Source of the DNA: a virus
Virus record (IMG/VR): IMGVR_UViG_3300040801_002948
Location: 1-64,000 of that record
DNA: 64,000 bases
Direction: 5' to 3' (one strand)
Shown here: piece by piece, positions 703 to 42,798 of the stretch
Position numbering within the stretch: position 1 is the first letter of the stretch
Layout: the number at the start of each line of letters is the position of its first letter
Notes under the pieces: generated by a model
The model's input: the letters and a program-made list of their open reading frames with translations, nothing else
The model's database searches: none
What the model was told of the DNA's origin: nothing
Made by a program: the position numbers and the translations under genes

Positions 703-1851
703 ATGCAGTACAACATTTCTGCTGACCAAGAATTCTTGATTGACTTCAGCTTGTCCCTTTCTCAAGGCGCTGTTTTGAATTACTATGTCAAATGCCCGGT
801 GTGGGCAAGATGGACTGACATGAACGGCCGCCGGTTCTACCATATCAGCCGGAACAAAGTTATATCTGAATTTCCTGCCATTAGCATGAAGCCGGACACG
901 GTTTATCGTATTAATAAAGCACTAGAAAAGGCTTGCTTGATAGTTTACAGGACAGACAATAAAAAAGACTTTATAGCCCTTTCGCCGGTTCTTGAATACT
1001 GGATGAAAAAGAAGGATGAAATTTATCTTGCGCGGCTTGATAAAATGGGCCTTGAAGCAAAGCACCTTCAGTTTGAAAAAGAAGCCTTGAATTTGTTTGC
1101 TGACAACTCGGAAAAAAATCCGAGCAAAGCAGAAGAACGGCAAGAACTCGGAAAAAAATCCGAGACAGCTCGGAAAAAAATCCGAGATAACTCGGAAAAA
1201 AATCCGACAAATAAGAACAACAGTAATAAGAACACCAATAATAAGAACAAAGAACTGTCAAGCCTTTTTGCAAAAAAGGCAGTGAATGACCCTGAATTAC
1301 GGTTAATTGAAAGGCTGAACCCAAAGAACCTAAAGCACGCGGGGCTTATTTATGACGTGACAGCGCACTTTATAGAGAAGACCGGGAAGAAGCAAACAAA
1401 GCCTTACACACAAGGCATGTTTGATAAAGTGGTTTATTGGGCAAATAGGGGCTATAGGCTTGAAGACTTCAAAAAGGTCATTGACTTCAAAGTTTGGTAC
1501 TTTACAGAAAAATTCCCCAAGCCTGAAAATATCAACCTTGTTTCCTTTATCAGGAAGGAACATTTTGAAACAAACCTTAGCAGTGCCCAAGAATGGCAAG
1601 AAAACCCAGCACAGGGCAGCACAGAAGCTGTCAAGGGCGATATTTACTATTCAAGGTTTGTCAAGTTTATAGAAAACAACTATCCGCAGTTCAACGGCAT
1701 GGTGCCAAATGCTTCAAGGTTTTTTGAAGCAATAAGGAATAATCCGTCTAAAGCTCAACAATTGCGGCGGGTTGTTAACCTTTTGGCAAAAGAAAACCAC
1801 ACGCCAAACGGACAGGATTTTATCACTTTGATGAAAAAGTTTTCCAAATAA
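703..1851 (+). CDS. putative replication initiator / replisome organizer (DnaD-type C-terminus)
   Basis: 382 aa. wHTH-like N-terminus. Central K/N/E low-complexity linker that carries the DNA iterons. C-terminal KVVYWANRGYRLEDFKKVIDFKVWYF...NLVSFIRKEHFETNL resembles the conserved phage replisome-organizer C-terminus. The TAA stop lies inside the next promoter palindrome. Confidence 0.5.
   Translation: MQYNISADQEFLIDFSLSLSQGAVLNYYVKCPVWARWTDMNGRRFYHISRNKVISEFPAISMKPDTVYRINKALEKACLIVYRTDNKKDFIALSPVLEYWMKKKDEIYLARLDKMGLEAKHLQFEKEALNLFADNSEKNPSKAEERQELGKKSETARKKIRDNSEKNPTNKNNSNKNTNNKNKELSSLFAKKAVNDPELRLIERLNPKNLKHAGLIYDVTAHFIEKTGKKQTKPYTQGMFDKVVYWANRGYRLEDFKKVIDFKVWYFTEKFPKPENINLVSFIRKEHFETNLSSAQEWQENPAQGSTEAVKGDIYYSRFVKFIENNYPQFNGMVPNASRFFEAIRNNPSKAQQLRRVVNLLAKENHTPNGQDFITLMKKFSK
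1107..1208. repeat. four 18-bp palindromic iterons CTCGGAAAAAAATCCGAG (candidate ori)
   Basis: Copies at 1107-1124, 1147-1164, 1169-1186 and 1191-1208 (last base C in copy 4). They fall in three different reading frames of the host ORF. Confidence 0.75.
1210..1249. repeat. AATAAGAACA x3 at 15-bp spacing
   Basis: Units at 1210, 1225 and 1240, directly downstream of the iterons. A-rich. Confidence 0.7.
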
Positions 1852-1909
1852 TTTGGTTTGTATTTTTTTGGGCTTATCTTTACGCCATCGTTAACAAAAA
1901 CCACACAGC
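1844..1909 (+). promoter_or_regulatory. promoter-leader element, partly decayed copy
   Basis: CCAAATAATTTGG at 1844-1856. -7-like TATCTTTA. Leader CCATCGTTAACAAAAACCACACAGC. ATG at 1910. Confidence 0.55.
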
Positions 1910-2869
1910 ATGTTTGACAAGATTTTAGCTTTAAGGAATTTAGAAGTATCAAAAAGCCCGGCGGGCTACGCTGTTTATCACAAGCACCTTGAAACCGGCG
2001 CAAGCCTTTTTGATGATTTTGTGAATTTTGTCCTTCAGTATGACAGCTTTGAGCTTGACGAAATCCGCCGCGCTTACAGAGTTGTTTTCCTGCCAATATT
2101 AAATTCCCGTGGAATAGTGCTTCATGACGATGGCTTTAAGGTTCACGACATGAGAAGCTTTAAAAGAATGGGCACTTCCAAGGCAAACGCTGTCATTTTA
2201 GCGTTTGAAATGGGCCTGTGGGCTTTAAAAGACGTTAGTTGTCAAATTTCCAAGCCGCACTTGCACAAGTCATTGTATAAATTTCTTGATGTTTTGACAG
2301 TGGAGGTTGATGAATTATCCGGGCTATTTGTTTACCGTCCTACTTATGCCGGCCTTAAATGTTATGGCAATTTACATATGTTTGCCAATGATTTTATTGA
2401 AATAGTGGACTATTTTTACCCTGACCATTCATTCAGTGAGTATCAATTTGCTGTTCGCTACCATGAGCATTTTATAAAGCACGCTGTAAGGTGCGAAGTT
2501 GTTGAGCAACCAAGCGGCAACTTTTCTATTGGCGTTCCACTTTCGACCTATTCAAAGCATGAATTTTTAGTCTTTATAGCCTTGCTTGAATTGGAGCTAT
2601 TGGATATTTCCGGAGCAGACGTTTTAAGGCCTACCAATTCAACCGCTATTTACAGGGCTATAGACACCACGACCGGGCAAGAAGTTTTTATTGCAATTGG
2701 GTCTTACATAGAAGGCTATGTTCAATATGCAAAAATTAAGTCTGAAAAAGCTATGGCCCAAAGTTCAAGTTGGCTGTCAATCACACAAAGCCGCTTTGTG
2801 CGTTCAATGACAGGGCAGGATTTTTACAAGCTTTACGCCAATTTGCAATACATAAAGCCGCTTACCTAA
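1910..2869 (+). CDS. hypothetical protein (319 aa)
   Basis: ATG directly after the conserved leader. TAATG junction with the next ORF. Confidence 0.6.
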   Translation: MFDKILALRNLEVSKSPAGYAVYHKHLETGASLFDDFVNFVLQYDSFELDEIRRAYRVVFLPILNSRGIVLHDDGFKVHDMRSFKRMGTSKANAVILAFEMGLWALKDVSCQISKPHLHKSLYKFLDVLTVEVDELSGLFVYRPTYAGLKCYGNLHMFANDFIEIVDYFYPDHSFSEYQFAVRYHEHFIKHAVRCEVVEQPSGNFSIGVPLSTYSKHEFLVFIALLELELLDISGADVLRPTNSTAIYRAIDTTTGQEVFIAIGSYIEGYVQYAKIKSEKAMAQSSSWLSITQSRFVRSMTGQDFYKLYANLQYIKPLT

Positions 2870-3417
2870 TGCAAACTATTGAAGAAACCCTTTCTGAAGC
2901 GGAAAAGGTAAATTTATTGCGTGGCATGTTCGCAGGAATTGCGGACATTCGCCACGTATATGAAGGCACCGCTTCAAAAAAGGTGTGGGAACAGGGATAT
3001 AAATATTTGTCGTTTAAGATGGGCTATAAAATAGACACGCTTGACGGCATGAGCGGCGATGAAGCGCTAAAGGCTTATGACTTGCTTTTAAACCCTGAGC
3101 CAAAAGCATACCAAATTTTACATTACAGGTTTTTCAATACTTATGTTCAGCGCAATGAAGCATGGCTGAAAGTATATGGCGAAATGTTGCCGGAACAGCT
3201 TTTAACTGAACTATTTTTTGCTTTTGACCCTGAAGAACATTTTGCTTTAGCTTATCAGCGTGCCGGGCTTCAAGTCCAAGAACGCCAAATAATTCACAAA
3301 ACATTTGACCGGGCAAAAGCACTTCCTTATATTGCGGATGGCTGGTATTTTGGGTATGCGCCAAAAGACCGGTTGAACAAGCTACCAAACCACACAGCAT
3401 GTACATTGAATTTATAG
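2869..3417 (+). CDS. hypothetical protein (182 aa)
   Basis: Start moved from the ORF-track start (2770) to the internal ATG that forms a TAATG overlap with the upstream stop. Confidence 0.5.
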   Translation: MQTIEETLSEAEKVNLLRGMFAGIADIRHVYEGTASKKVWEQGYKYLSFKMGYKIDTLDGMSGDEALKAYDLLLNPEPKAYQILHYRFFNTYVQRNEAWLKVYGEMLPEQLLTELFFAFDPEEHFALAYQRAGLQVQERQIIHKTFDRAKALPYIADGWYFGYAPKDRLNKLPNHTACTLNL

Positions 3418-7355: not shown

Positions 7356-7751
7356 ATGGCTTTTTCTTGTGGGCTTCCTGAAATTCAGTCTTTGTTAAAT
7401 TGTACGGGGCGGAAAAATCAAGCGCTTAGTTGGGTTGAACGCCATTTCCCTGAAGTTTCTGGTTTTATTGGTGAGTTGCTTTCAATTGGCGGGAGCGGTA
7501 ACGCGGAGCTTTTTGGGTCATCAGATAGCCGTGTTTTAAATTTAGCCTTTTCGTTCCCTTTAAGGGAAGATGAAAAAACGCAACGGTTTTTAAAGACAGT
7601 ACGCAATTCTAAAAATATTCAAGAACTTATTGACGAACACGGTATTAGCTGTCAATTCCACGGCGTTCTTATCTACACTGAGGGCCAAGGCTTTGATTGG
7701 CAATACCAATCTTTAGTTGAAGAAATAATTGAAAAAATAATAAGATTTTAA
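7356..7751 (+). CDS. hypothetical protein (131 aa)
   Basis: The ORF-track start (7197) would read through a terminator. The first ATG after the terminator was chosen instead. Confidence 0.45.
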   Translation: MAFSCGLPEIQSLLNCTGRKNQALSWVERHFPEVSGFIGELLSIGGSGNAELFGSSDSRVLNLAFSFPLREDEKTQRFLKTVRNSKNIQELIDEHGISCQFHGVLIYTEGQGFDWQYQSLVEEIIEKIIRF

Positions 7752-7822
7752 CCAAATAATTTGGTGTTTACAAATAAGCGCTGTATATTTGACCTATCGT
7801 TAACAACAAAACACCACACAAC
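7752..7822 (+). promoter_or_regulatory. promoter-leader element, full copy
   Basis: CCAAATAATTTGG at 7752-7764, N20, TATATTTG, leader CTATCGTTAACAACAAAACACCACACAAC, ATG at 7823. Confidence 0.7.
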
Positions 7823-8191
7823 ATGATTCACGCAACAACATCCAAAGACCTGATGGGCAGTTTTTACAGCATTTGCGGCCGGAAGCTTACAGGCGTTGCA
7901 TCGGCTACGGTACACACTTCCGAATTTGCAAAAGCTAAAGCAGACGGCCACCGCGTTTGCTCCATATGCGCTGCTAAGCTGAAAGCTAAGCAGGAAGCTA
8001 AAAAGCGCGCGCCCAAGCCTAAAGGGCCTACAGCCAAGCAGTTGAACCGCTGGCTGAAAGAAGCTAAGCAAGATGTAAAGGACTTCAACCCTGTTTGGGC
8101 TGATGGCACACCAAAAGCGCCACACATTATTGAAAACCTGAAAGAGCGGGTTTCTGAATTGGAAAAATCGCTTCAGGAACTTGAAGCGTAA
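7823..8191 (+). CDS. hypothetical protein, Cys-pair (zinc-ribbon-like) N-terminus and basic coiled-coil C-terminus
   Basis: SICGRK...HRVCSICAAK, then a K-rich helix. Flanked by its own promoter and terminator. Confidence 0.6.
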   Translation: MIHATTSKDLMGSFYSICGRKLTGVASATVHTSEFAKAKADGHRVCSICAAKLKAKQEAKKRAPKPKGPTAKQLNRWLKEAKQDVKDFNPVWADGTPKAPHIIENLKERVSELEKSLQELEA

Positions 8192-8234: not shown

Positions 8235-8256
8235 CAAAAAAACTTTAAAACAATAC

Positions 8257-8325
8257 CCAAATAATTTGGACGGCAATATAAAGCGCCGTATATTTGAACC
8301 ATCGTTAACAGCAAAACCACACAAC
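8257..8325 (+). promoter_or_regulatory. promoter-leader element, full copy
   Basis: CCAAATAATTTGG at 8257-8269, TATATTTG, AACCATCGTTAACAGCAAAACCACACAAC, ATG at 8326. Confidence 0.7.
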
Positions 8326-8646
8326 ATGAATTACAAAGGAACAAAGCTTACAAAACTTGCAATCACAATTGGCAATATCTTGCGCGGCAAAAAGTACGGC
8401 AAGATTGAAGCAAGCCTTGCTTTGCGCCTTGGTTACGAATATGCAGAACAGATTATTGCTGAAGGCCTTGAATACAAAGTTGTGAGGTTTTACAGCAAGT
8501 CAGAAAAGCGGAATGTTTCAAAGGTGGTTTTGATGCTGCCAACTAATAACCGGGATTTTCAAAACTATGAAGACTTGATTTTGAGAATACGCGGGGCAAA
8601 TTCATTCCGCCGGTACAAAACGTGCCTGTTAAAAAAAGTGTCATAA
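8326..8646 (+). CDS. hypothetical protein (106 aa)
   Basis: The start was set at the ATG following the leader. The ORF-track N-terminal extension from 8266 is a translation of the promoter element. Confidence 0.6.
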   Translation: MNYKGTKLTKLAITIGNILRGKKYGKIEASLALRLGYEYAEQIIAEGLEYKVVRFYSKSEKRNVSKVVLMLPTNNRDFQNYEDLILRIRGANSFRRYKTCLLKKVS

Positions 8647-11506: not shown

Positions 11507-11826
11507 GAAAGCAAAGAATAAAAGCGGCTATTGATTACGCTGCAAAGCTGTTTGTGCTTCTGCTGAACCAAGCCGGGCTTTGGGTTGCGGTTTCAAGTAC
11601 GTCAGGTTTTTTCCATTGGCTTATGTGGTTTGTTTTTGTATTCATGACAGTTGGCGTTGTCTTGTCACAAGTTGCTGAAGGCTTGGCTTTTTACCACGTC
11701 AAAAGGTATGAACGCGAAAATGAAATAAGCTTTGCCCGGAATTACGCGGCGGCTTTGTATGCTTCAAGGCGATTCAATTACAGCGTTGCAAAAAAAGCAA
11801 TTGACCGGCTTTTGAATGTCAAATAA
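11503..11826 (+). CDS. membrane protein (107 aa, 2 TM)
   Basis: ATGA overlap with the upstream ORF. TM segments: LFVLLLNQAGLWVAV and LMWFVFVFMTVGVVL. The stop TAA lies inside the palindrome-like TCAAATAATTTGG. Confidence 0.6.
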   Translation: MRKQRIKAAIDYAAKLFVLLLNQAGLWVAVSSTSGFFHWLMWFVFVFMTVGVVLSQVAEGLAFYHVKRYERENEISFARNYAAALYASRRFNYSVAKKAIDRLLNVK

Positions 11827-11879
11827 TTTGGATTTTGTTTTTTATTCCTGTATGTTTGCAACTATAAACCACACATGAC
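11819..11879 (+). promoter_or_regulatory. promoter copy with diverged leader
   Basis: TCAAATAATTTGG, N20, TATGTTTG (a TAnnTTTG match), leader CAACTATAAACCACACATGAC, ATG at 11880. Confidence 0.55.
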
Positions 11880-12869
11880 ATGAGTACAAGCAAAACAACT
11901 ACCACAAAGAAGGCGGCACCGGCAAAGAAACCGGTGGCTAAAGCAAAAAGCGTTGAAGACATTTACAGCGCGGCGGAATTAGAAGCTTTAAGCCGTATTT
12001 ACGGCAAGCTTGACGGCCTTGATTTTATTGTGAGCAAGGCCGAACAAGTGAAGGCAAATCTTCAGCTTTGGCTTCAGGGCTGTAAGACTAACCCGGAATG
12101 GGTGAAGAAGATTAAAGACGGCCGCCGGTTGTCTTCTGTTGACGCGCAATTGACGCGCCTGAAGGCTACTGCGATGTTTGGCCCTTACGGCGCTAAATGG
12201 GGCGTCAGAAAAAAGAAGTTCGACCTTCAGGACTTGGGGCCTGTTGACATCGGCGGTGGCCGTTCAGTGCCTGCCCTTTTGCTGATGCTTACAGCAGAAT
12301 TTTACTATCCAAGCCCTATTGACGGCACAGAAATCAGCTTTGAGACAGAAGGAAGCATTTGGGTTTTTCAGGTTGAGCGGGGCGTTTACAAGCCGGTCAC
12401 AGACCTTATGAAGCGGGTTTCAACGGCCGTTGTCAGCAAATCGCTTTCTTTTATTGGGGTTAATTCTGATGTATTTGAAGGCCGGTTTGATGACCAAGAA
12501 TATCAGCACCAAATTGGTGAACATTTCCAGCCGTTTTTGGCTGAAGTGCCTGACGCGAAGCCGCCAAAAGCACAGCCAAAAACAAGCGCGCCTTCACCGG
12601 TCATTGAATTCAACAAAGACCAAGTGAAGCAACTATTCAAGTGGTTCAACGCTGAATGGGATTCAAATGGCGTGAAGTCTTTCCTTGAATCGAAAGGCTA
12701 TGACATTGACGAAAACAGCCTTAACAAAATCAAGTGGGCTAAGTTCTTCTTCAATCAAATGGCCCAAGATGGAAAGGTTGAACCGGATGACTTTGATAAA
12801 AAAGTGAATCAAAGCTTTGCAACGCTTATCCGTGAAAGCTGGAAAGATTACGCTAATGCACAAAAGTAA
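11880..12869 (+). CDS. hypothetical protein; possible Rad52/Sak-like single-strand annealing protein with a basic AKP-rich N-terminal tail
   Basis: KKAAPAKKPVAKAK tail. AMFGPYGAKWG and SLSFIGVNSDVFEG loosely resemble Rad52-family motifs. The functional call is weak. Confidence 0.35.
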   Translation: MSTSKTTTTKKAAPAKKPVAKAKSVEDIYSAAELEALSRIYGKLDGLDFIVSKAEQVKANLQLWLQGCKTNPEWVKKIKDGRRLSSVDAQLTRLKATAMFGPYGAKWGVRKKKFDLQDLGPVDIGGGRSVPALLLMLTAEFYYPSPIDGTEISFETEGSIWVFQVERGVYKPVTDLMKRVSTAVVSKSLSFIGVNSDVFEGRFDDQEYQHQIGEHFQPFLAEVPDAKPPKAQPKTSAPSPVIEFNKDQVKQLFKWFNAEWDSNGVKSFLESKGYDIDENSLNKIKWAKFFFNQMAQDGKVEPDDFDKKVNQSFATLIRESWKDYANAQK

Positions 12870-14900: not shown

Positions 14901-15348
14901 TGATAAGATAACTTTGATTCCGACTTTTAACGCACCTGAAAAGAACTATATGTCAGCGGTGGCAAAGTTTTCAGAAAGCGCTTCAACAGGTGTTTGTCGG
15001 GATTATTTTTTACTTACCACAATGCTAACGCCACCACGTAGCCTTTGGCGGGCCCCTGAAGCTCAAACACCAAAAGGCTTTGCCAGTGCTTACCGTCAGT
15101 ATTTGCAAACAATTGATGCACCGCGCGCGCTTGAAGCGCTTGTTCAGTTTATGAAAAGCAGGCGGGTAAAGCATTTATTTTTGGTGACTACAAAAACAAA
15201 AAGGTCTTATGAAGGCGCGCTTGTGCTGCTTGATTTTGTCAAGGAATACGGTATGCAAGTAAACATGAATAACCGCCGGTTCAATATGAACGCAATAAAG
15301 GCAGGGGAAGAAGCCCCGCTGCCTGAAGAAGATGGCCTTCTTTTTTAG
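14893..15348 (+). CDS. hypothetical protein (151 aa)
   Basis: Start set at the ATG overlapping the upstream stop (ATGAATGA). Confidence 0.45.
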   Translation: MNDDKITLIPTFNAPEKNYMSAVAKFSESASTGVCRDYFLLTTMLTPPRSLWRAPEAQTPKGFASAYRQYLQTIDAPRALEALVQFMKSRRVKHLFLVTTKTKRSYEGALVLLDFVKEYGMQVNMNNRRFNMNAIKAGEEAPLPEEDGLLF

Positions 15349-15354
15349 TAGTTG

Positions 15355-15423
15355 TTAAATTATTTGGTTTTTCAAATAGTTTGGCATAACTTAGCGTCAT
15401 CGTTAACAAAAACCACACAGGCG
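15355..15423 (+). promoter_or_regulatory. promoter-leader element, decayed copy
   Basis: TTAAATTATTTGG. Degenerate -7 TAACTTAG. Leader GTCATCGTTAACAAAAACCACACAGGCG. ATG at 15424. Confidence 0.45.
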
Positions 15424-16128
15424 ATGACTGAAAAATTCAAACCTTTTAAGCCAGTCCGTTACAAAGCTATTCCATTAGTCAGGCCGGGCAGCAAGTTAGC
15501 TAAAGAATACCACGGCGACCACAGGCGGCGCGTTGAACACAACGTCAGCGTCTATTGTGGGTTTTCAGGGGCTTTTGAAGCTTTTGCTTTGATGCTTGAG
15601 TTAAAGGATTTGTATTGGAAAGCCTACCACAAGCACGGGCGCGCCTGTATGGAATTTAACCCTGAAGCAAGCGTTGCTTTGCGTGCCCTTCCGGATGAAA
15701 TTGATTACTATGCAATTTCTGAAGGAATCCCAAAGGGTTTTGACCGTCACAATTCTCGCCATACCTGTTTGGTCGAAAGCATTGAAAATTGGGAGGAAAC
15801 GACAATGAAAAGACAAGGGCCCTTGCTCAAGTGCTTTCAAGGCCTAAGCTTTATTTTTTGGGTATCAATGACCGGCAAGGTGACCGGCAAAGAAGAAGAA
15901 ATTGCCGAAAAAGTGTCAATTATGGCGCGCAATTCAAAAAGCTTTGTTGGCCTGTTTTATACCGGTACTTCAGGGAATTTTATTGTATCTTCAAGCTATC
16001 AGCCGACAAGGAAGAAGGCCCTGTCAGAAGCACTTGCTGAAAAGGGTTTAAAATTCGTGTTTGTGCCTTCAAAGGTGCCCGGTTTTGAATGGCTTTCAAT
16101 TAACCTTTTAAACTTTGAAAAATGCTAG
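15424..16128 (+). CDS. hypothetical protein (234 aa)
   Basis: Start at the ATG after the leader. The ORF-track extension is a translation of the element. Confidence 0.6.
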   Translation: MTEKFKPFKPVRYKAIPLVRPGSKLAKEYHGDHRRRVEHNVSVYCGFSGAFEAFALMLELKDLYWKAYHKHGRACMEFNPEASVALRALPDEIDYYAISEGIPKGFDRHNSRHTCLVESIENWEETTMKRQGPLLKCFQGLSFIFWVSMTGKVTGKEEEIAEKVSIMARNSKSFVGLFYTGTSGNFIVSSSYQPTRKKALSEALAEKGLKFVFVPSKVPGFEWLSINLLNFEKC

Positions 16129-27666: not shown

Positions 27667-27915
27667 ATGAAAAATTACAGCGCCTTAGTAAAAAGCAAAG
27701 AAAAGCGGATTTTAACCGCAAAAGGGAATAAGTTTGTTTGGCGCTGCATTGACGTTGCAGCAGAACAGCGGGGCTTGAACCGTTATTCAAAAGAACTGAA
27801 TCCGCTGAAGGAAAAGCTTCGCAATTTGTTGCACCACTTGATAATTGATAAAGGGCTTTCAGCCACTGAAATAAAAGCGATTATCAAAGAAAGTTGCAAT
27901 CTTTTTGCCAAATAA
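27667..27915 (+). CDS. hypothetical protein (82 aa)
   Basis: Cassette ORF. The stop TAA is the centre of the next palindrome (27908-27920). Confidence 0.6.
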   Translation: MKNYSALVKSKEKRILTAKGNKFVWRCIDVAAEQRGLNRYSKELNPLKEKLRNLLHHLIIDKGLSATEIKAIIKESCNLFAK

Positions 27916-27975
27916 TTTGGTATTTACGAATAAGCGCTGTATATTTGAACCATCGTTAACAACAAACCGAACGTC
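27908..27975 (+). promoter_or_regulatory. promoter-leader element, full copy
   Basis: CCAAATAATTTGG, TATATTTG, AACCATCGTTAACAACAAACCGAACGTC, ATG at 27976. Confidence 0.7.
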
Positions 27976-28308
27976 ATGAAAAAGTCAATCGAAAATAAGG
28001 CTATCATTGAAGCACTGAAGGAAGTAGCAACTGACGGCTGGAAAGACAGCGCCACACATGCCACAATGGAAGCGGCGCTTGTGGCTGTGAACTATGCTTC
28101 AGGCATAAATTCAGGTTGGTACAATCCTAAAGCCGTAAAAGTGGAAGGGCTGGAAGGTTTTTTCATGGTCAATGAAAACGGCGGGCTTTGGTATGAATCA
28201 AGAATCATTGAAGCTTCAAACGGCTTCACTATTCAAAACATGACGCTAAAGGCGTTTAACGAATTTGAAGCAAATCTTGGTAAGCACCTTGACCGGCTTG
28301 AAAAATAA
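27976..28308 (+). CDS. hypothetical protein (110 aa)
   Basis: Cassette ORF. Confidence 0.6.
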   Translation: MKKSIENKAIIEALKEVATDGWKDSATHATMEAALVAVNYASGINSGWYNPKAVKVEGLEGFFMVNENGGLWYESRIIEASNGFTIQNMTLKAFNEFEANLGKHLDRLEK

Positions 28309-28323
28309 ACTTCAATCTTTTTG

Positions 28324-28394
28324 CCAAATAATTTGGCGCTTTCATTTACTTGCCGTATATTTGAACCATCGTTAACAACAAAACCACACAGACA
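28324..28394 (+). promoter_or_regulatory. promoter-leader element, full copy (consensus-like)
   Basis: CCAAATAATTTGG at 28324-28336, N20, TATATTTG at 28356-28363, AACCATCGTTAACAACAAAACCACACAGACA, ATG at 28395. Confidence 0.75.
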
Positions 28395-28790
28395 ATGACA
28401 GCTTCAATCAAAGTAGGCAGCAAAATCCGGGCAAAAGTCACTTCTTCTTCATCTTTTTACCTTGAAGTAGAAGGCAACGTCACCGCCATCAACGGCGCGC
28501 GCATTTCCATCCAAGCTACTATGGTAAAAGACCGCTACTCTAAGGAATGGAAGCAGCACCCAACGTCATGCGCTATGAACGTAAGGGAGGAAAATGCAAC
28601 GCTGATTGAAGCGGAAGGCGCGCCGGAAAGCACCGGTGAAATGCTTCAGCAGGTTGTTGCCGCGTTCCTGCCTGCCACGCGGGTAATGAACCAAGGCGAA
28701 CTTACCGCGCACATTCAGAAGATGGGCTATAGCCGGGCCTTTGCGGCTAAGCTTTCAAAAATGTGCTTCCTGAAAGCGCAAGGCAAGTAA
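28395..28790 (+). CDS. hypothetical protein (131 aa)
   Basis: Cassette ORF. Confidence 0.6.
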   Translation: MTASIKVGSKIRAKVTSSSSFYLEVEGNVTAINGARISIQATMVKDRYSKEWKQHPTSCAMNVREENATLIEAEGAPESTGEMLQQVVAAFLPATRVMNQGELTAHIQKMGYSRAFAAKLSKMCFLKAQGK

Positions 28791-28798: not shown

Positions 28799-28840
28799 GC
28801 CCGGCAAGCGCTACCAAAAGCCATGGCGGGCAACTTTTTT
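28799..28840 (+). terminator. intrinsic terminator (family with 30659 and 31561)
   Basis: GCCCGGC...GGCGGGC stem (one mismatch) followed by AACTTTTTT. Confidence 0.5.
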
Positions 28841-28851
28841 CATCTTTTTCG

Positions 28852-28923
28852 CCAAATTATTTGGTATTTACAATAAAGCCCCGTATATTTGAACCATCGT
28901 TAACAGCAAAACACCACACACAC
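28852..28923 (+). promoter_or_regulatory. promoter-leader element, full copy
   Basis: CCAAATTATTTGG, TATATTTG, AACCATCGTTAACAGCAAAACACCACACACAC, ATG at 28924. Confidence 0.7.
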
Positions 28924-29175
28924 ATGAGAACGAAAATCACAGAAATCCGCGTAGTAATCACAACCAAGGCCCCTTTCCACGTGTGGGCCAAGTATGACAA
29001 CGGACTTCGCAAGTACGAAGGCTTTGACGTTGCTGAAACCGTTGAGGCGGCACATGAGCGCGCCCGCGAATTGGCAACCACGCTAAACGCGGACTTCCGT
29101 AGCGTGACAGACACCGTGAATGTTTCAGTATATGGCACTGACGGCGCTGAAACCAAAAGCAGCTACCGCGTTTAA
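28924..29175 (+). CDS. hypothetical protein (83 aa)
   Basis: Cassette ORF. The ORF-track extension from 28861 is a translation of the element. Confidence 0.6.
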   Translation: MRTKITEIRVVITTKAPFHVWAKYDNGLRKYEGFDVAETVEAAHERARELATTLNADFRSVTDTVNVSVYGTDGAETKSSYRV

Positions 29176-29453: not shown

Positions 29454-29500
29454 AAGCCTATATTAAGCGGTGAAGCTTACAGCTTTACCGTTGGCATAGT

Positions 29501-29541
29501 GCCCCGCATTACAAAAGAGTATTGCCGGGGCGCTTTTTTTT
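29501..29541 (+). terminator. intrinsic terminator
   Basis: GCCCCG...CGGGGC stem followed by GCTTTTTTTT. Confidence 0.6.
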
Positions 29542-29551
29542 CATCTTTTCG

Positions 29552-29622
29552 CCAAATTATTTGGTAATTACGAACAAGCGCTTTATATTTGTACCATCGT
29601 TAACAACAAAACCACACAGACA
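29552..29622 (+). promoter_or_regulatory. promoter-leader element, full copy
   Basis: CCAAATTATTTGG, TATATTTG, TACCATCGTTAACAACAAAACCACACAGACA, ATG at 29623. Confidence 0.7.
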
Positions 29623-29910
29623 ATGAAAAAGGCAACATTCCCAAAGCAGATGACAGAGCGCGGCCAAAAGTGGGCGGGCGTTCCCGTAGTCAAAACGATC
29701 ATTATCCGCGAAAGCGGCAACAAAGTTTTCAAGCCTTCAAAAGAAATCCCTTGCGCGGGTTGGTGGCTGTCATTCCTTGAAGAAAACGGTTTCTTCCGGC
29801 GCATGATTCAGGGGCGCATTGTAGGCACTACCACGGTACTTTGGGAAAATAACGAAGGTCAGCGCTTCCGCACTGACTTTGGCGCGGAAATGGAAGATAT
29901 TGAAGGCTAA
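29623..29910 (+). CDS. hypothetical protein (95 aa)
   Basis: Cassette ORF. Confidence 0.6.
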   Translation: MKKATFPKQMTERGQKWAGVPVVKTIIIRESGNKVFKPSKEIPCAGWWLSFLEENGFFRRMIQGRIVGTTTVLWENNEGQRFRTDFGAEMEDIEG

Positions 29911-29950: not shown

Positions 29951-29962
29951 TAAATATTCAAG

Positions 29963-30020
29963 CCAAATGTCTTGGAATCCAAAATAAATGGCTTATTTTC
30001 GCATTAAATAAACCACACAG
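29963..30020 (+). promoter_or_regulatory. decayed promoter copy
   Basis: CCAAATGTCTTGG, N19, TATTTTCG, leader CATTAAATAAACCACACAG, ATG at 30021. Confidence 0.35.
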
Positions 30021-30224
30021 ATGAAAAAAGAGACATCAAGACGAATGAAAGCGGCCGCCGCTTGGGCCGAATCTGACGCTTTTGCACGTTGGCAAGCGTA
30101 TCAGCGGAAGCGGCCCACATGGTCAAACCCTACACACCCGAACCATGACAAATGGGTAGTTAGGAAAAACAAAGCTCTAAGGGCAAAAAGGGCTATTTAC
30201 CGGAAGCACAATATTTTAATTTGA
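30021..30224 (+). CDS. hypothetical basic protein (67 aa)
   Basis: ATG after AAACCACACAG. Confidence 0.5.
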   Translation: MKKETSRRMKAAAAWAESDAFARWQAYQRKRPTWSNPTHPNHDKWVVRKNKALRAKRAIYRKHNILI

Positions 30225-30658: not shown

Positions 30659-30698
30659 GCCCGGCCCGCCATGAAAAGCAAAGCCGGGCATTTTTTTT
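30659..30698 (+). terminator. intrinsic terminator (near-identical to 31561)
   Basis: GCCCGGC-CCGCCATGAAAAGCAAA-GCCGGGC followed by ATTTTTTTT. Confidence 0.7.
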
Positions 30699-30709
30699 GC
30701 ATCTTTTCG

Positions 30710-30779
30710 CCAAATAATTTGGCTTTTACATTTACTTCCTGTATATTTGAACCATCGTTAACAGCAAAACACCACACAC
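30710..30779 (+). promoter_or_regulatory. promoter-leader element, full copy
   Basis: CCAAATAATTTGG, TATATTTG, AACCATCGTTAACAGCAAAACACCACACAC, ATG at 30780. Confidence 0.7.
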
Positions 30780-31064
30780 ATGAAAAAGCAGGAATTCCAA
30801 GCAAAGGCAGAAAAGCAGGTTCAAGATTTTCTAAAGGCTTTTAATCAGGGGCAAATAGTTCTTGGCGGAAAGGTCTTCACCTTTGAAAGTGCCGGGAAGT
30901 ACAGCGTTTGCATAAAAGGCGAACGTGGCGCTTCTTACAGGGTTTCACCGTGCCCGAATTGCACAGTGGACGGTAATAAAGAATTAGCTGTTTACACTAT
31001 CAGCCGCAATTCGCGCGCTGTAGACTTTACTTTGATTAACGGGAAATACACTGAATTAAAATAA
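30780..31064 (+). CDS. hypothetical protein (94 aa)
   Basis: Cassette ORF. Contains CPNC. Confidence 0.6.
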   Translation: MKKQEFQAKAEKQVQDFLKAFNQGQIVLGGKVFTFESAGKYSVCIKGERGASYRVSPCPNCTVDGNKELAVYTISRNSRAVDFTLINGKYTELK

Positions 31065-31069
31065 AGTTG

Positions 31070-31137
31070 CCAAATTATTTGGCACTTTCGATTGCTTGCC
31101 CTATCTTTGAAACATCGTTAACAACAAACCGCAAGAC
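31070..31137 (+). promoter_or_regulatory. promoter-leader element, full copy
   Basis: CCAAATTATTTGG, TATCTTTG, AAACATCGTTAACAACAAACCGCAAGAC, ATG at 31138. Confidence 0.7.
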
Positions 31138-31554
31138 ATGCCACACATTCACTTTTCTTGGAAGACTTCAAAAACTGCAAACGGCTTTCAGTTCACAGTT
31201 AGCCTTAACCAATCACTAAGCGCGCCAAACGCAGAAGGCCGCTATGTGAACACTAAAGTAATTAAAACCGGCACGCTGCCCACGCGGGCCCGCGCAAAGA
31301 CAATGGCGCAAAAGTGGGTCAGGTTCTTTAAGTGGGAATGGAAAATTCGCCTTGAAGCGGCTGAAGAAGACCTTCAGATTTTAGAGCAAAGCGGCGCTTC
31401 AGGAATAACCGGTACAAACCGGGGCACTGTCATGACAAGCTTTGACGATGGCGTTTACTTGTTCCGGGCGCAAAACAATTTCTTCCTTCAGTCATCAGAC
31501 CGCCAAAAAGCACTGATGGCGCTTGCAGAAGTGTATATTGTAATGCGGGACTAA
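31138..31554 (+). CDS. hypothetical protein (138 aa)
   Basis: Cassette ORF. Confidence 0.6.
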   Translation: MPHIHFSWKTSKTANGFQFTVSLNQSLSAPNAEGRYVNTKVIKTGTLPTRARAKTMAQKWVRFFKWEWKIRLEAAEEDLQILEQSGASGITGTNRGTVMTSFDDGVYLFRAQNNFFLQSSDRQKALMALAEVYIVMRD

Positions 31555-31560: not shown

Positions 31561-31600
31561 GCCCGGCACGCCACGAAAAGCAAAGCCGGGCAACTTTTCT
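31561..31600 (+). terminator. terminator hairpin (near-identical to 30659)
   Basis: GCCCGGC-ACGCCACGAAAAGCAAA-GCCGGGC followed by AACTTTTCTT (weak T-run). Confidence 0.5.
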
Positions 31601-31612
31601 TACATTATCTTG

Positions 31613-31682
31613 CCAAATTATTTGGTAATTACAATTGAGCGCCGTATATTTGAACTATCGTTAACAGCAAAAGAAAGACATT
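31613..31682 (+). promoter_or_regulatory. promoter-leader element, full copy
   Basis: CCAAATTATTTGG, TATATTTG, AACTATCGTTAACAGCAAAAGAAAGACATT, ATG at 31683. Confidence 0.7.
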
Positions 31683-32033
31683 ATGTTTACAATCAATGAC
31701 CCGCGTTTCACAGACCCTTCAAAGAAAGCACAATTGGAAGCAGACCTGAAGCGGATAGCCGCTTACCTTGAGCGCACAGAAGCGTTTCAGGAAAGCTTGC
31801 GCGCTCAAGCGCCAAAGCGCCCGGAAGCGCCAAAGGTCGAATGGCAGGACTTTGAAGGCACTGAAGTTTTGCGCAAAGGCGCTGACGGCCGTTTTTTGGC
31901 TGTTCCTGCGAATGGCCGCAAATCTTGCCGCACTTATGCAATCATTGACACGCAAGACCGGTCAGATATCTTTTGCCAAGTATCTAAGGCCGAAGTTTAC
32001 AACTGGCTTGCAACTGCTAATGAAGATTTTTAA
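31683..32033 (+). CDS. hypothetical protein (116 aa)
   Basis: Cassette ORF. Confidence 0.6.
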   Translation: MFTINDPRFTDPSKKAQLEADLKRIAAYLERTEAFQESLRAQAPKRPEAPKVEWQDFEGTEVLRKGADGRFLAVPANGRKSCRTYAIIDTQDRSDIFCQVSKAEVYNWLATANEDF

Positions 32034-33036: not shown

Positions 33037-33092
33037 TTTGCATAAATTGCCGCTTTAGTCCATTACACACTATATCCAAGCACTGCCCAAGT

Positions 33093-33124
33093 CCTGAAAT
33101 TAAACCTTCAGGGCTTTTTTTTTG
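33093..33124 (+). terminator. intrinsic terminator
   Basis: CCTGAA/TTCAGG stem followed by GCTTTTTTTTT. Confidence 0.5.
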
Positions 33125-33134
33125 CATCTTTTTG

Positions 33135-33205
33135 CCAAATAATTTGGCGCTTTCGTTTACTTCCTTTATATTTGTACCATCGTTAACAACAAAACCACAC
33201 AGACA
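33135..33205 (+). promoter_or_regulatory. promoter-leader element, full copy
   Basis: CCAAATAATTTGG, TATATTTG, TACCATCGTTAACAACAAAACCACACAGACA, ATG at 33206. Confidence 0.7.
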
Positions 33206-33397
33206 ATGAAAAAGTCATTAACAGAGTTGGAAGAAAAAGCGGCACAGATTGCAGAAAAGCACCCAAAGACAAAAGCCAAGGTTATCTTCAGCCCGTGGGC
33301 GCATGGCTACTTTATTGAAGTTGCCACAGTAGACCAAGCAAAAGCGCTGAGCGAAATTCATAAAGGCTTCCGCTTTTCTTCCGGTTCTTATCAATAA
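33206..33397 (+). CDS. hypothetical protein (63 aa)
   Basis: Cassette ORF. Confidence 0.55.
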   Translation: MKKSLTELEEKAAQIAEKHPKTKAKVIFSPWAHGYFIEVATVDQAKALSEIHKGFRFSSGSYQ

Positions 33398-33403: not shown

Positions 33404-33455
33404 GCCCGGCAAAAAATAATCGCCAAATATTTTGGAATTGCCGGGCGGCTTTTTT
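33404..33455 (+). terminator. terminator hairpin that encloses the next -33 palindrome in its loop
   Basis: GCCCGGCAA (33404-12) / TTGCCGGGC (33438-46) followed by GGCTTTTTT. The loop carries CCAAATATTTTGG. Confidence 0.55.
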
Positions 33456-33492
33456 ATCTTTGAACCATCGTTAACAACAAAACCACACAGTC
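33423..33492 (+). promoter_or_regulatory. promoter-leader element, full copy
   Basis: CCAAATATTTTGG, N20, TATCTTTG, AACCATCGTTAACAACAAAACCACACAGTC, ATG at 33493. Confidence 0.65.
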
Positions 33493-33810
33493 ATGAAGAT
33501 TCAGGATTTTCTTACGGCAAGCGCAAACCACAGCCGCATAGAATTTAACGTTAAAGGCCGGTCGTTTACGCACTTTTACACGCGTGAACAGTGGGAAGAA
33601 GCGCTGATTGAAAACGGCCTTAGCCGCCGGTTTGCAAGCCTTATTTTCGATAAGTTTCTTGGCCATGACAGCGCGCCAAGAACAATTGGCGAAAAGATTC
33701 AAATGCACGTAAAAACGGTAAAGCAGGCGCGCGAATATGGCGAAGCCTTGCAGGATTGCACAAACGCGGCTGAGCTTGAAGCGTTTTGCGAGTATTTTAA
33801 CAATAAGTAA
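33493..33810 (+). CDS. hypothetical protein (105 aa)
   Basis: Cassette ORF. Confidence 0.6.
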   Translation: MKIQDFLTASANHSRIEFNVKGRSFTHFYTREQWEEALIENGLSRRFASLIFDKFLGHDSAPRTIGEKIQMHVKTVKQAREYGEALQDCTNAAELEAFCEYFNNK

Positions 33811-35339: not shown

Positions 35340-35349
35340 GCCGTTGCAA

Positions 35350-35385
35350 TACAGTCAGTTATAAAAGCTGACTGTATTTTTTTGC
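35350..35385 (+). terminator. intrinsic terminator
   Basis: ATACAGTCAG / CTGACTGTAT perfect 10-bp stem followed by TTTTTT. Confidence 0.8.
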
Positions 35386-35395
35386 ATCTTTTTCG

Positions 35396-35464
35396 CCAAA
35401 TAATTTGGCATTTGTAATTACTCGCCGTATATTTGAACTATCGTTAACAACAAAACCACACAGC
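35396..35464 (+). promoter_or_regulatory. promoter-leader element, full copy
   Basis: CCAAATAATTTGG, TATATTTG, AACTATCGTTAACAACAAAACCACACAGC, ATG at 35465. Confidence 0.7.
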
Positions 35465-35713
35465 ATGAATATCAAGACGCAAATCACAGAAACAGCAGAA
35501 TACAGAAGCACTTTAGTCAAAGTTGGCAAGACCGAATGGGCGGTCATGGTGGTGACTGGAAAAACAAATTACGTGTCAGTGCGCAAGGTTACAAGTAACC
35601 CGTTCGGCGCGCTGGGAAAGCAGTTTGAAAACGCTGATGCTGCTATTGCAAATTACAAGTCAGCAAAGATGCAAGCTATGTTGATTCAGGTATTTGACAT
35701 GCTTCAAAAGTAA
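35465..35713 (+). CDS. hypothetical protein (82 aa)
   Basis: Cassette ORF. Confidence 0.6.
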   Translation: MNIKTQITETAEYRSTLVKVGKTEWAVMVVTGKTNYVSVRKVTSNPFGALGKQFENADAAIANYKSAKMQAMLIQVFDMLQK

Positions 35714-35742
35714 AAATAAGCCGGGCTTTAGGGTAAAACCTG

Positions 35743-35813
35743 CCAAATGATTTGGTTATTATAATTGTCCGCCGTATATTTGAACTATCGTTAACAACAA
35801 AACACCACACGAC
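35743..35813 (+). promoter_or_regulatory. promoter-leader element, full copy
   Basis: CCAAATGATTTGG, TATATTTG, AACTATCGTTAACAACAAAACACCACACGAC, ATG at 35814. Confidence 0.7.
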
Positions 35814-36113
35814 ATGACAAATTCAGAAAAGCTTGGCATTACCTTTGAAAACATTATGGCGCTTGGCGCTGAAACCATCGCCCGCCGTTCAGCGCGGGTT
35901 TATATCAACTACCTGTATTATATGAATGGTGGCGGTGGCTACACTAAGAAAGCCGTTGAAAAGATGGAAGCGCGCCAAAAGGAACTGACGCTTCAGGACG
36001 TTGAAGGCTTTGCCCGGTCAGTTGTCCGGGTAATTGATAAAGCGCCGGAAACGTGCCCAACAAAGCGCTATTTTCAAAAAGCTTATGCGCAATGGTTTGC
36101 GCCCAAAAAATAG
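35814..36113 (+). CDS. hypothetical protein (99 aa)
   Basis: Cassette ORF. Confidence 0.6.
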   Translation: MTNSEKLGITFENIMALGAETIARRSARVYINYLYYMNGGGGYTKKAVEKMEARQKELTLQDVEGFARSVVRVIDKAPETCPTKRYFQKAYAQWFAPKK

Positions 36114-36366: not shown

Positions 36367-36404
36367 ACTAACAGCCTGAAGGTGAGCAACTTGAAAAATA
36401 AGTG

Positions 36405-36472
36405 CCAAATAATTTGGTTTATAAAGTTGCTTGCCTTATCTTTGAAACATCGTTAACACAAACCACGCAAAC
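36405..36472 (+). promoter_or_regulatory. promoter-leader element, full copy
   Basis: CCAAATAATTTGG, TATCTTTG, AAACATCGTTAACACAAACCACGCAAAC, ATG at 36473. Confidence 0.7.
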
Positions 36473-36892
36473 ATGAAAGACAGACAGTTTATTCAAAGCT
36501 TGATAGACCAATTGCATTTTAACCAGTCAATAAGCTTTGGTACAGAAGAAGACCTTCTGACCGTAACGCACATGCGCGTTAGCGCCTATGAAAGCGCTTT
36601 CTTTTTCACCTTAAATGGGCAAGCGCATGACAAGTATAAAACCGCGTTAGGCGCGGGCCTTGGGTGCAATGGCTTTCTTGAAAAAGGTTTCCGGCTTGAA
36701 CTTGAGCCGGAAGAAGCTGTCATGGCCCTTAGAATGGCTTTAGAAAGGCATGATTCAGAACTTGTTTTGGAGCTTCTGAACCCTGACCGGCGCGAAAGCT
36801 TGCCGGATTGGGAAGAAGCGCCTGACTACATTTTTGATGACTGGCAGGGCTATGAAAGCAAGGCATTGAAATTTCTTGAACGGTTCCAGTAA
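36473..36892 (+). CDS. hypothetical protein (139 aa)
   Basis: Cassette ORF. Confidence 0.6.
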   Translation: MKDRQFIQSLIDQLHFNQSISFGTEEDLLTVTHMRVSAYESAFFFTLNGQAHDKYKTALGAGLGCNGFLEKGFRLELEPEEAVMALRMALERHDSELVLELLNPDRRESLPDWEEAPDYIFDDWQGYESKALKFLERFQ

Positions 36893-42183: not shown

Positions 42184-42446
42184 TTTTCAATGTTTACTTC
42201 TTCAATTTCTTCTTCAGTGTTCAGCCAATAGCGGTCATTATTTGCCGCGCATTCGCGCATTTCGGCAAGCGTTGGCCGCGCGAACGTATTATAGGAACGC
42301 TTGAGAATAACCGCTTTGTAGCGGGTGAAATACGTTTCCGGAATTTGGCTGATTGAATCAAACCACTTTGTTTGCGTGGTGGTTTGGTCAATGTTTTCAA
42401 AGCGGATGGCGAAAACTGTTTTTCTGATTGGTGTGCGGTCTGTCAT
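42177..42446 (-). CDS. hypothetical protein (89 aa)
   Basis: ATG directly follows a minus-strand copy of the leader. Confidence 0.6.
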   Translation of the reverse strand: MTDRTPIRKTVFAIRFENIDQTTTQTKWFDSISQIPETYFTRYKAVILKRSYNTFARPTLAEMRECAANNDRYWLNTEEEIEEVNIEKC

Positions 42447-42517
42447 TGTCTGTGTGGTTTTGTTGTTAACGATGGTTCAAAGATAAGACAACCAAGCGAG
42501 AATACCAAATTATTTGG
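42447..42517 (-). promoter_or_regulatory. promoter-leader element, full copy on the minus strand
   Basis: Minus-strand reading: CCAAATAATTTGG, TATCTTTG, AACCATCGTTAACAACAAAACCACACAGACA, ATG (42446). Confidence 0.7.
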
Positions 42518-42525
42518 AATAACAT

Positions 42526-42729
42526 TTAGTTATTGAATAATTGCTTGACAACTGCCTTGGCTGTTTTGCCCGCGCCGGTGCTTTCTTCCCAAGCTTTAAA
42601 GGTCATTCCGGCTTCCTTCATTTCATAGGCTTCTTTAAACAGCTCAATAGTTGATTCAGACAGCAAAAAGGTTTTAGTTGCTTCGCTTGCTGCCTTAAAG
42701 CTTTTTGTGGACTTGATGAAATTTTTCAT
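42526..42729 (-). CDS. hypothetical protein (67 aa)
   Basis: Start at the ATG after the leader. The ORF-track extension to 42834 is a translation of the element. Confidence 0.6.
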   Translation of the reverse strand: MKNFIKSTKSFKAASEATKTFLLSESTIELFKEAYEMKEAGMTFKAWEESTGAGKTAKAVVKQLFNN

Positions 42730-42798
42730 GGTGTGTGGTTTTGTTGCTAACGATGGTTCAAAGATAGGGCAAGCAAACGTAATTACCAAATTATTTGG
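42730..42798 (-). promoter_or_regulatory. promoter-leader element, full copy on the minus strand
   Basis: Minus-strand reading: CCAAATAATTTGG, TATCTTTG, AACCATCGTTAGCAACAAAACCACACACC, ATG (42729). Confidence 0.7.

Follow-up and report, generated by a model that had tools for sequence, protein, structure and literature searches.

In the PeSL elements (promoter-early stem-loops) of T4-type phages, a consensus sigma-70 promoter with an AT-rich region upstream is joined to a terminator stem-loop and to the start signals of an ORFan gene; about 50 of them are found per T4-type genome, located in hyperplastic regions, and they mediate modular shuffling (Arbiol et al. 2010, PMC2839356; Comeau et al. 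2014, PMC4122927). The current study deals with a repeated promoter-plus-leader module in the IMG/VR virus record IMGVR_UViG_3300040801_002948, of which the stretch from position 1 to 64,000 (the window) was analyzed. The window represents an uncultured tailed phage with a GC content of ~45% and a genome of ~64 kb, whose predicted host group is Bacteroidota. In our view, the modules are probably composite early-expression cassettes that are read by the host RNA polymerase and have spread by duplication and recombination in a PeSL-like manner, and they are best regarded as a Bacteroidota version of such mobile promoter cassettes rather than as evidence for a new regulator.

Two further comparisons are instructive. 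The Bacteroides phage promoter P_BfP1E6 (Whitaker et al. 2017) is described in the accounts available as an engineering part with UP elements and its own ribosome-binding site (bioRxiv 10.1101/2025.03.18.644028; PMC11554821), and its output exceeds that of the native rRNA and rpoD promoters several-fold, these attaining no more than ~20% of it (bioRxiv 10.1101/2025.03.18.644028). Compared by description only, it resembles the present modules in being read by the host RNA polymerase without phage factors and in its UP elements, -7 consensus and phage translation leader, but these accounts present it as a single engineered part, in contrast to the family of ~20 copies in one genome found here. 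The stoperators of L5/Cluster A phages likewise consist of a 13-bp site that is repeated 20-30 times per phage genome and through which one repressor can silence many units (PMC9283540, PMC6550527). Stoperators are, however, asymmetric, orientation dependent and bound by a monomer, and they lie mostly in transcribed regions, where they halt elongation (PMC9283540, PMC6550527). The site in the window is symmetric and always overlaps the -33 element, and no repressor gene was detected; the asymmetric sites in one orientation that, with a cognate repressor, define the L5 type are thus not seen here.

The original prediction of a repeated module proved to be correct, since all 18 full and five decayed copies lie where they had been placed, and all 18 start codons of the full copies are genuine, including those on the minus strand at 42446 and 42729. 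The decayed copies before 1910, 11880, 15424, 21844 and 30021 also agree with their earlier description. Each module comprises, in this order, a 13-bp palindrome, 19 nt, TAnnTTTG, the block ATCGTTAACA, a CA-rich leader and ATG. Its geometry is fixed: in 18/18 full copies the distance from the first base of the palindrome to that of the -7 box is 32 nt and the TTTG of the -33 element is followed by exactly 20 nt, ATCGTTA[A/G]CA begins 4 nt past the -7 box, and the ATG is found 68-72 nt from the palindrome start. The perfect TAnnTTTG reported for 17 of the 18 full copies was recovered, in the form of TATATTTG or TATCTTTG, and the remaining copy, at 27599, has TACCTTTA. A search for TTTG-N18-21-TAnnTTTG returned 21 sites in 64 kb, 18 of which are listed copies (the 17 full ones with a perfect -7 box and the decayed one before 11880), all with a TTTG-to-TA distance of exactly 20 nt. 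With up to one mismatch, CCAAATWATTTGG occurs at 20 sites in the window, all of them inside modules, versus 0.34 expected from shuffles. Column-wise information peaks in three blocks, GCCAAATaATTTGG, TATaTTTG and ATCGTTAACAaCAAAaC, and a repeat finder recovered the family independently, counting 11 copies at a length of 114 nt and 15 at 77 nt. Fourteen modules are concentrated within 27.6-36.5 kb (one per ~660 bp), in the stretch of small open reading frames (ORFs) between the terminase and the structural genes; the others are located in the replication region and, as a pair on the minus strand, at 42.4-42.8 kb. The cargo proteins are mutually unrelated, as had been claimed: a BLASTP comparison of 23 proteins gave no pair at E<=0.01, and a Pfam scan of 20 proteins from the cargo region gave no match.

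Comparison with related genomes points to copying within each genome as the source of this uniformity. An IMG/VR search with the large terminase (TerL) alone found no relative and an exact TerL lookup found no record, but TerL homologues led to six related contigs (~62-65 kb) or prophages with 40-60% identity, and the TerL of the closest genome found is 60% identical. The relatives include SRR17165160_1985, Ga0160421_1000078 and Ga0307031_1000063. In all six, TerL is followed by many small ORFs with a repeated cassette of their own. The cassette of L167 retains TGCCAAAT-W-ATTTGGCA and differs in the +1 region (TACCAGACAAC), which lacks GTTAAC, and that of L168 has TTCCAtATTATTTGGAA, the -7 variant CACCTTTG and again a different +1 region. 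Other inverted repeats cover the -33 element in L170, L171, L172 and L174 (TTGTCAAAATATTTGGACAA, ATCAAAATAATTTGAT, TATTCT..GGAATA and TTATGCAAAAACTTGCATAA, respectively), and of the +1 block the other relatives retain only RTCG. The leaders of the closest relatives, L167 and L168, are CA-rich and end in AAACCA, whereas those of the more distant ones are A-rich. On average, cassettes are identical to 0.76-0.82 within a genome versus 0.63-0.70 between genomes, and cassettes before orthologous cargo genes (window 30780 and L168 15614; window 31683 and L168 11896) do not resemble each other more closely than random between-genome pairs do. The cargo genes themselves are mostly absent from the relatives, and the few common ones are reordered or lie on the other side of TerL. 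Homogeneity within genomes together with reshuffled cargo would be expected of cassettes that are copied or converted in the genome and flank exchangeable genes. The earlier proposal that the modules are recombinogenic cassette boundaries is thus supported indirectly, by concerted evolution, reshuffled cargo and, as set out below, identical subunits in unrelated phages.

At the upstream end of the module, a hairpin (-12 to -21 kcal/mol) is found in seven copies, with its end 21-29 nt ahead of TTTG and a T-run behind it, so that the upstream block TTTTTGCATCTTTTT is largely the U-tract of a terminator merging into a T-rich stretch. The hairpins are predicted to be strong intrinsic terminators. 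The block is conserved, as had been noted, but in these seven copies it is not unexplained. In an alignment of four copies, similarity spans the terminator and stops at coding boundaries, resulting in a repeated unit of up to ~150 nt; the unit as such was recognized correctly, but the ~70-100 nt originally assigned to it are too short for several copies. With these seven hairpins and one more of ~-19 kcal/mol that encloses the -33 element, the family has the stem-loop typical of PeSLs, while the other copies show only the weak palindrome (-5 to -6 kcal/mol as RNA).

The 13-bp palindrome over the -33 element is not confined to phages. The pattern CCAAATWATTTGG-N19-TATMTTTG was found at 95 or more genome loci (one genome per species), nearly all of them from Bacteroidota, i.e., Prevotella, Alistipes, Muribaculaceae and Bacteroidaceae, with fewer from some Flavobacteriales, Chitinophagales, Sphingobacteriales and Marinilabiliales. 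Among these host loci (L187-L281), of which L227 598-637, L228 365-404 and L265 431-470, all on the minus strand, are examples with the 13-mer 19 nt before TATMTTTG, 16 have a tRNA gene on the same strand less than 100 nt downstream. Eight more carry leaders of 16S rRNA operons; two have been verified with Rfam, the 16S gene beginning 190-240 nt downstream, and six are assigned by the same leaders at contig ends. Stable-RNA promoters, which we estimate at ~1-2% of all promoters, thus make up about one quarter of the host matches. After dereplication, the host sites show an A-rich stretch near -50. They resemble the phage modules in the 19-nt distance from the end of CCAAATWATTTGG to TATMTTTG and in an A/T-rich stretch beyond it on the upstream side, but differ in the start region (CACCCG or CATCCG versus AACCATCG in the phage) and in the lack of a CA-rich leader, because their products are RNAs. 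As this 13-mer is used with identical spacing by host tRNA and rRNA promoters, the palindrome can be accounted for without a phage-specific protein, and the 13-mer would serve the host RNA polymerase at the strongest promoters of the host. The literature searched did not mention the 13-mer in a relevant context or describe an extended -33 element.

Controls qualify the palindromic character of this element. In IMG/VR, the left arms CCAAAT, GGAAAT, AAAAAT, CACAAT and AACCAT were found at 51, 25, at least 120, 11 and 0 loci, which correspond to 16, 10, at least 57, 7 and 0 clusters after dereplication. A strong palindrome-specific enrichment was rejected on this basis, as CC is only ~1.6-2x as frequent as GG and a sharp drop occurs only for arms that break the A-tract. 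The counts show that an A-tract beside TTTGG is strongly preferred, with the C/G ends adding at most ~2-fold, and AAAT/ATTT is self-complementary in any case, which accounts for much of the palindrome. The palindrome was also rejected as a general feature of Bacteroidota promoters, since an inverted repeat over the -33 element is present in 0/69 other predicted promoters from unrelated fetched loci. A divergent promoter starting from the mirrored TTTG was dismissed for want of a -7 box on the other strand.

The +1 block has a distribution of its own. ATCGTTAACA is invariant in 17/18 full copies (one has G for A) and is also present in two decayed copies; the predicted +1 lies in AACC|ATCG, resulting in a predicted 5' untranslated region (5'UTR) of ~25-28 nt, compared with a mode of 23 nt in B. 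thetaiotaomicron (PMC7366714). A scan with the 23-mer that spans the -7 box and +1 matched no isolate or metagenome-assembled genome, and hence did not point to a host, and matched a single metagenomic contig, L186 (Ga0102963_1012999; 3.5 kb, 1-3544; 33% GC), which has no other similarity to the window and unrelated coding sequence. In its 3.5 kb, L186 harbors five cassettes with TATCTTTG-N4-ATCGTTAACA and an AT-rich leader, in each of which a different and much stronger inverted repeat, GGGATAGGTTTG..CAAACTTATCCC (-17.7 kcal/mol), forms a hairpin over the -33 element and the spacer, with the -7 box doubling as a U-tract. TATMTTTG-N4-ATCGTTAACA was further detected in eight IMG/VR contigs, several of them with an ATG 17-25 nt downstream, and one contig pair has the leader ATCGTTAACAACAAAACAACAAGACAATG, which is almost identical to that of the window. 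L186 and several of the IMG/VR contigs keep ATCGTTAACA in differing -33 contexts. Different phages hence combine the -33 element with the -7/+1 unit and the translation-start motif in different ways, and these represent separable parts, which argues against a paired operator system. Separability favors modular expression signals, which may themselves be exchanged.

That ATCGTTAACA at +1 to +10 is a recognition sequence in its own right, either a DNA operator with a GTTAAC core or a 5' RNA tag governing the stability or translation of early mRNAs, appears very improbable to us. Its near invariance would fit such a role, as would the recurrence of the decamer behind the -7 box of unrelated contigs with GC contents of 33-50% (L186 with five copies, L283/L289, L287, L284 and L288), most of which have an ATG 17-25 nt downstream. 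However, L167 shares the -33 palindrome and nevertheless has TACCAGACAAC at this position, the RTCG kept by other relatives fits a start-site preference, the eight IMG/VR matches are only ~2x a rough chance expectation, and GTTAAC is neither avoided nor enriched outside modules (11 copies, with ~18 expected from base composition in the whole window). A role of GTTAAC as a restriction or methylation target was discarded because of this unremarkable abundance. The minus-strand ATCGTTAAC at 9256 was likewise considered and dropped, as there is no promoter at this site.

The -33 inverted repeat could alternatively be the operator of a dimeric protein, i.e., an early shut-off or immunity repressor of the phage or a co-opted host factor for stable-RNA promoters, and one such protein could switch all ~20 promoters together. 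We consider this unlikely, if far from negligible. The palindrome is kept in 18/18 full copies, its center base flips between A and T as in a symmetric site, it never occurs outside a promoter in the window, and promoters that match the consensus are likelier to be repressed than activated. The arms of the relatives differ and are symmetric all the same (TGCCA..TGGCA, TTCCA..TGGAA, TTGTC..GACAA and TATGCAA..TTGCATA), and the absence of such a repeat from the 69 other promoters also speaks for a dedicated site. In a shuffle test, the symmetry was significant for L174 (p=0.0006), L167 (0.004) and L170 (0.015), with 0.005-0.05 for the window, and a Fisher combination gave ~2e-4, albeit for lineages that are not fully independent. 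Yet no significance was obtained for L168, L171, L172 and L186 when only perfect arms were counted, so that three or four lineages fail on their own, and the distance between half-sites varies among relatives from 1 to 7 nt. The AAAT/ATTT self-complementarity of an A-tract beside TTTG makes much of the symmetry trivial, and the identical 13-mer at the same spacing before host tRNA and rRNA genes of many genera dispenses with a phage-specific protein. A search of ~98 ORFs against Pfam, PHROGs and NCBIfam detected no integrase, sigma factor, RNA polymerase, helix-turn-helix protein or repressor, which is weak negative evidence against a regulon.

The regulon under a single regulator with operators at -33 and +1, as originally suggested, therefore finds no support: host promoters use the 13-mer, the blocks are separable, and no regulator gene was detected. 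A wider version, in which the -33 repeat is the site of an undescribed dimeric factor at Bacteroidota stable-RNA promoters, perhaps with phage-encoded or lineage-specific versions, and ATCGTTAACA is a second mobile control element, is speculative and rather doubtful. If true, ~20 early promoters would be tied to the growth state of the host or to a single phage switch.

A third possibility is that the inverted repeat acts in read-through RNA as a PeSL-like stem-loop that insulates the cassettes as an attenuation, termination or processing mark. PeSL stem-loops can overlap the -35 element (PMC2839356). The L186 hairpin covers the -33 element and the spacer before a U-rich -7 box, the hairpin at 33404-33446 encloses the palindrome and runs into a T-tract, and the variant left arms CTAAAT, TCAAAT and TTAAAT are all C-to-T changes that preserve G-U pairs. 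The palindrome of the window alone, however, reaches only -5 to -6 kcal/mol and has no T-run after it, seven copies already possess a separate strong terminator upstream, and host tRNA and rRNA promoters carry the same 13-mer without an obvious need for a hairpin. This explanation strikes us as improbable.

The leader of the modules can be understood in terms of translation in Bacteroidota. AAACCA[C/T]A occurs 22 times on the plus strand versus 2 expected, and in 19/22 cases an ATG follows 9-14 nt from where the motif starts. The leader motif AAACCACACAG-N-ATG is present at nine or more genes without an intact promoter (plus-strand ATGs 3399, 8865, 17316, 20762, 21844, 30021, 32054, 33860 and 35121), and because of its occurrence at these promoterless genes, it represents a general translation-start signal of the phage, free of a Shine-Dalgarno sequence, and not a promoter-specific operator part. 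The last 25 nt before the module ATGs consist of A and C to 80%, and the predicted folding energy from -30 to +30 is -1.8 kcal/mol for module genes versus -6.0 kcal/mol for other genes (p=6.5e-6). A is found at -3 and at about -12 to -15 relative to the module ATGs; in Bacteroidetes initiating without Shine-Dalgarno pairing, A at those positions is a positive determinant of initiation (PMC6847099), with which the phage leader fits. Matches to a leader 16-mer in IMG/VR (115 single hits, none in promoter context) were set aside as chance matches.

Taken as a whole, the modules share with PeSLs the combination of many short conserved intergenic motifs, a consensus promoter for the primary sigma factor of the host and an AT-rich upstream region, represented here by the -33/-7 consensus and the T-rich block with A/T tract. 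They also share a terminator or stem-loop in one unit with the start codon and translation signal of the gene that follows, and the concentration before ORFans in a hyperplastic region, with 14 copies in 27.6-36.5 kb before unrelated cargo without Pfam match and a few copies in the replication module. PeSLs are proposed sites of homologous exchange, and exchange would also occur in this phage. The differences are that the Bacteroidota signals -33 TTTG and -7 TAnnTTTG take the place of a sigma-70 promoter, that the cassettes contain no Shine-Dalgarno sequence but in its stead the unstructured CA-rich AAACCACACAG before the start codon, that the phage, with its tape measure protein and ~64-kb genome, is not of the T4 type, that the copies are more uniform with a fixed geometry, and that the strong stem-loop is usually upstream of the promoter and not inside it. 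Indels or replacements that are bounded by cassettes in close relatives, and the formation of mini-circles, are features of PeSLs. Because of the missing Shine-Dalgarno sequence, the non-T4 type and recombination that is only deduced, the cassettes are not members of the PeSL family in the strict sense.

In the reading that we prefer, each cassette is composed of (i) an intrinsic terminator in many copies, whose U-tract together with the T-rich stretch forms the upstream block, (ii) an extended -33 element of an A/T tract and TTTGG that together read as a 13-bp palindrome, (iii) a fixed 20-nt spacer from TTTG to TA, (iv) the -7 box TAnnTTTG for the Bacteroidota sigma-A, (v) the start-site or initially transcribed block ATCGTTAACA and (vi) a leader of only A and C that is unable to fold and would load ribosomes without a Shine-Dalgarno sequence. 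Such a cassette would be self-contained, read entirely by host RNA polymerase and ribosomes, and would turn most of the small ORFan genes and a few genes of the replication region into strong, probably early transcription units. The identity over 70-150 nt would mainly stem from copying, i.e., duplication, recombination or gene conversion between cassettes, and cassettes copied in this way would double as portable homology for gene shuffling, as PeSLs do. The host-polymerase promoter already proposed in the original prediction is supported at the sequence level by a perfect -33/-7 consensus, fixed spacing and a predicted 5'UTR near the Bacteroides mode. Each of the three conserved parts that had been called unexplained can be explained in an ordinary way or is at least distributed differently.

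Several observations weigh against this model. In most relatives, the inverted repeat over the -33 element has lineage-specific outer arms, which a purely RNA polymerase-based element does not predict, and according to the IMG/VR controls a host element accounts less well for the flanking C/G pairs than for the A-tract core. For a start site, the near invariance of ATCGTTAACA, together with its presence in unrelated phages, is more than would obviously be needed. Promoter activity, transcription start, early timing and recombination are all deduced from the sequence, and exchange at the cassettes had to be assessed with a closest relative of only 60% TerL identity.

The individual cassettes are as follows. 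On the plus strand, full modules are located at 7735..7825 (palindrome 7752-7764, -7 box 7784-7791, ATG 7823), 8240..8328 (8257-8269, 8289-8296, ATG 8326) and 22996..23086 (23013-23025, 23045-23052, ATG 23084), the last with 91% identity over 77 nt to the copy at 8257. They continue, with positions in the same order, at 27891..27978 (27908-27920, 27940-27947, ATG 27976), 28307..28397 (28324-28336, 28356-28363, ATG 28395), 35726..35816 (35743-35755 with G as the center base, 35775-35782, ATG 35814) and 36388..36475 (36405-36417, 36437-36444, ATG 36473). The module at 31053..31140 has a perfect 17-bp palindrome, TGCCAAATTATTTGGCA, at 31068-31084 (-7 box 31102-31109, ATG 31138). In the one at 33404..33495, the hairpin 33404-33446 (~-19 kcal/mol) encloses the palindrome at 33423-33435, and the T-tract runs into the -7 box at 33455-33462 (ATG 33493).

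The seven plus-strand copies with an upstream terminator begin at 27545..27669 (terminator 27545-27585 with a dG of -18.3), where the palindrome variant CTAAATTATTTGG at 27599-27611 is combined with the weak -7 box TACCTTTA and ATG 27667. Next are 28799..28926 (terminator 28799-28831, dG -15.7; palindrome 28852-28864; -7 box 28884-28891; ATG 28924), 29498..29625 (29498-29534, dG -21.3; 29552-29564; 29584-29591; ATG 29623) and 30659..30782 (30659-30689, dG -15.4; 30710-30722; 30742-30749; ATG 30780). The terminator of 31561..31685 (31561-31591) is near-identical to that at 30659 and precedes the palindrome 31613-31625, the -7 box 31645-31652 and ATG 31683. The last two are 33089..33208 (33089-33116, dG -12.3; 33135-33147; 33167-33174; ATG 33206) and 35348..35467 (35348-35378, dG -18; 35396-35408; 35428-35435; ATG 35465).

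Two full modules read downward on the minus strand. The first, 42444..42534 (palindrome 42505-42517, ATG 42446), drives 42177-42446 and probably also 41809-42183 and 41423-41782, and the second, 42727..42815 (palindrome 42786-42798, ATG 42729), has the variant GTTAGC. They belong to a minus-strand island of four genes (41423-42834) amid structural genes of the plus strand and pair with plus-strand copies as inverted repeats that reach 92 nt (85% complementary), by which homologous recombination could invert the island.

Among the decayed plus-strand copies, 1827..1912 is only slightly altered and nearly complete, with a perfect palindrome at 1844-1856, the -7 box TATCTTTA, ATCGTTAAC at 1887 and ATG 1910. 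The copy before an exonuclease gene, 11802..11882, has TCAAATAATTTGG at 11819-11831, the -7 box TATGTTTG and ATG 11880 and lacks ATCGTTAAC, while 15338..15426 combines TTAAATTATTTGG at 15355-15367 and a degenerate -7 box with ATCGTTAAC at 15399 and ATG 15424. At 29962..30023, GCCAAATGTCTTGG (29962-29975) and the translation-start motif are kept before ATG 30021, with a terminator upstream at 29919-29943, and at 21830..21846 only the translation-start motif is left (AAAACCACACAAGC-ATG, ATG 21844). In addition, a consensus promoter without palindrome (TTTGCACCC..TATCTTTG) occupies 27459-27489, where ORF 26812-27477 ends. Between it and the next, distant ATG there is a short hairpin with a T-run (27506-27520), and this promoter may drive a small RNA or read into the cassette array.

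With respect to the phage itself, a megablast of 20 kb gave no nucleotide match to cultured phages, and a single module as BLAST query gave nothing meaningful. The recognized genes comprise those for a replication initiator, primase/helicase, single-stranded DNA-binding protein, exonucleases and DNA methylase, TerL (25352-26791), the tape measure protein (44092-47640), an amidase endolysin, a ClpP-like prohead protease and a subtilase-like protease, in a non-T4 gene order. No late-promoter motif was evident in the other intergenic regions of the window. The largest ORF (59446-63921; 1491 amino acids) probably encodes a tail fiber or adhesin; many diverged repeats of ~50-120 nt at 59750-63300 (families D4-D12) are spaced by multiples of 3 (87, 93, 120, 204 nt, etc.) and thus reflect a repetitive protein domain array. 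The usage of hexamer palindromes is extreme, with 91 copies of AAGCTT and 65 of GCGCGC, for each of which ~15 would be expected from a rough base-composition estimate not computed for these two. Twelve or more hexamers have zero copies in 64 kb (CTGCAG, CTCGAG, CGTACG, CGATCG, CCTAGG, CCGCGG, CAGCTG, ATGCAT, ATCGAT, AGATCT, ACTAGT and ACATGT), which suggests restriction-site avoidance. In L172/L173, L167 and L170, genes for QueC, PTPS and GTP cyclohydrolase I (queuosine/archaeosine type) or PAPS-reductase/DUF3440 genes are located upstream of TerL, which suggests DNA base modification in this phage clade; none of these genes was detected in the window.

The mobile regulatory cassette architecture of T4-like coliphages would thus also be present in an unrelated clade of uncultured Bacteroidota phages, built from the phylum's own signals. 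The cassettes supply a simple signature for the annotation of early genes in such phages and, for engineering in Bacteroidota, a set of ~20 natural versions of a promoter-plus-leader part that is probably very strong. The extended -33 13-mer at the tRNA and rRNA promoters of many Bacteroidales may be the more important result, as it suggests a promoter-strength element, UP-like or factor-bound, beyond the textbook TTTG/TAnnTTTG.

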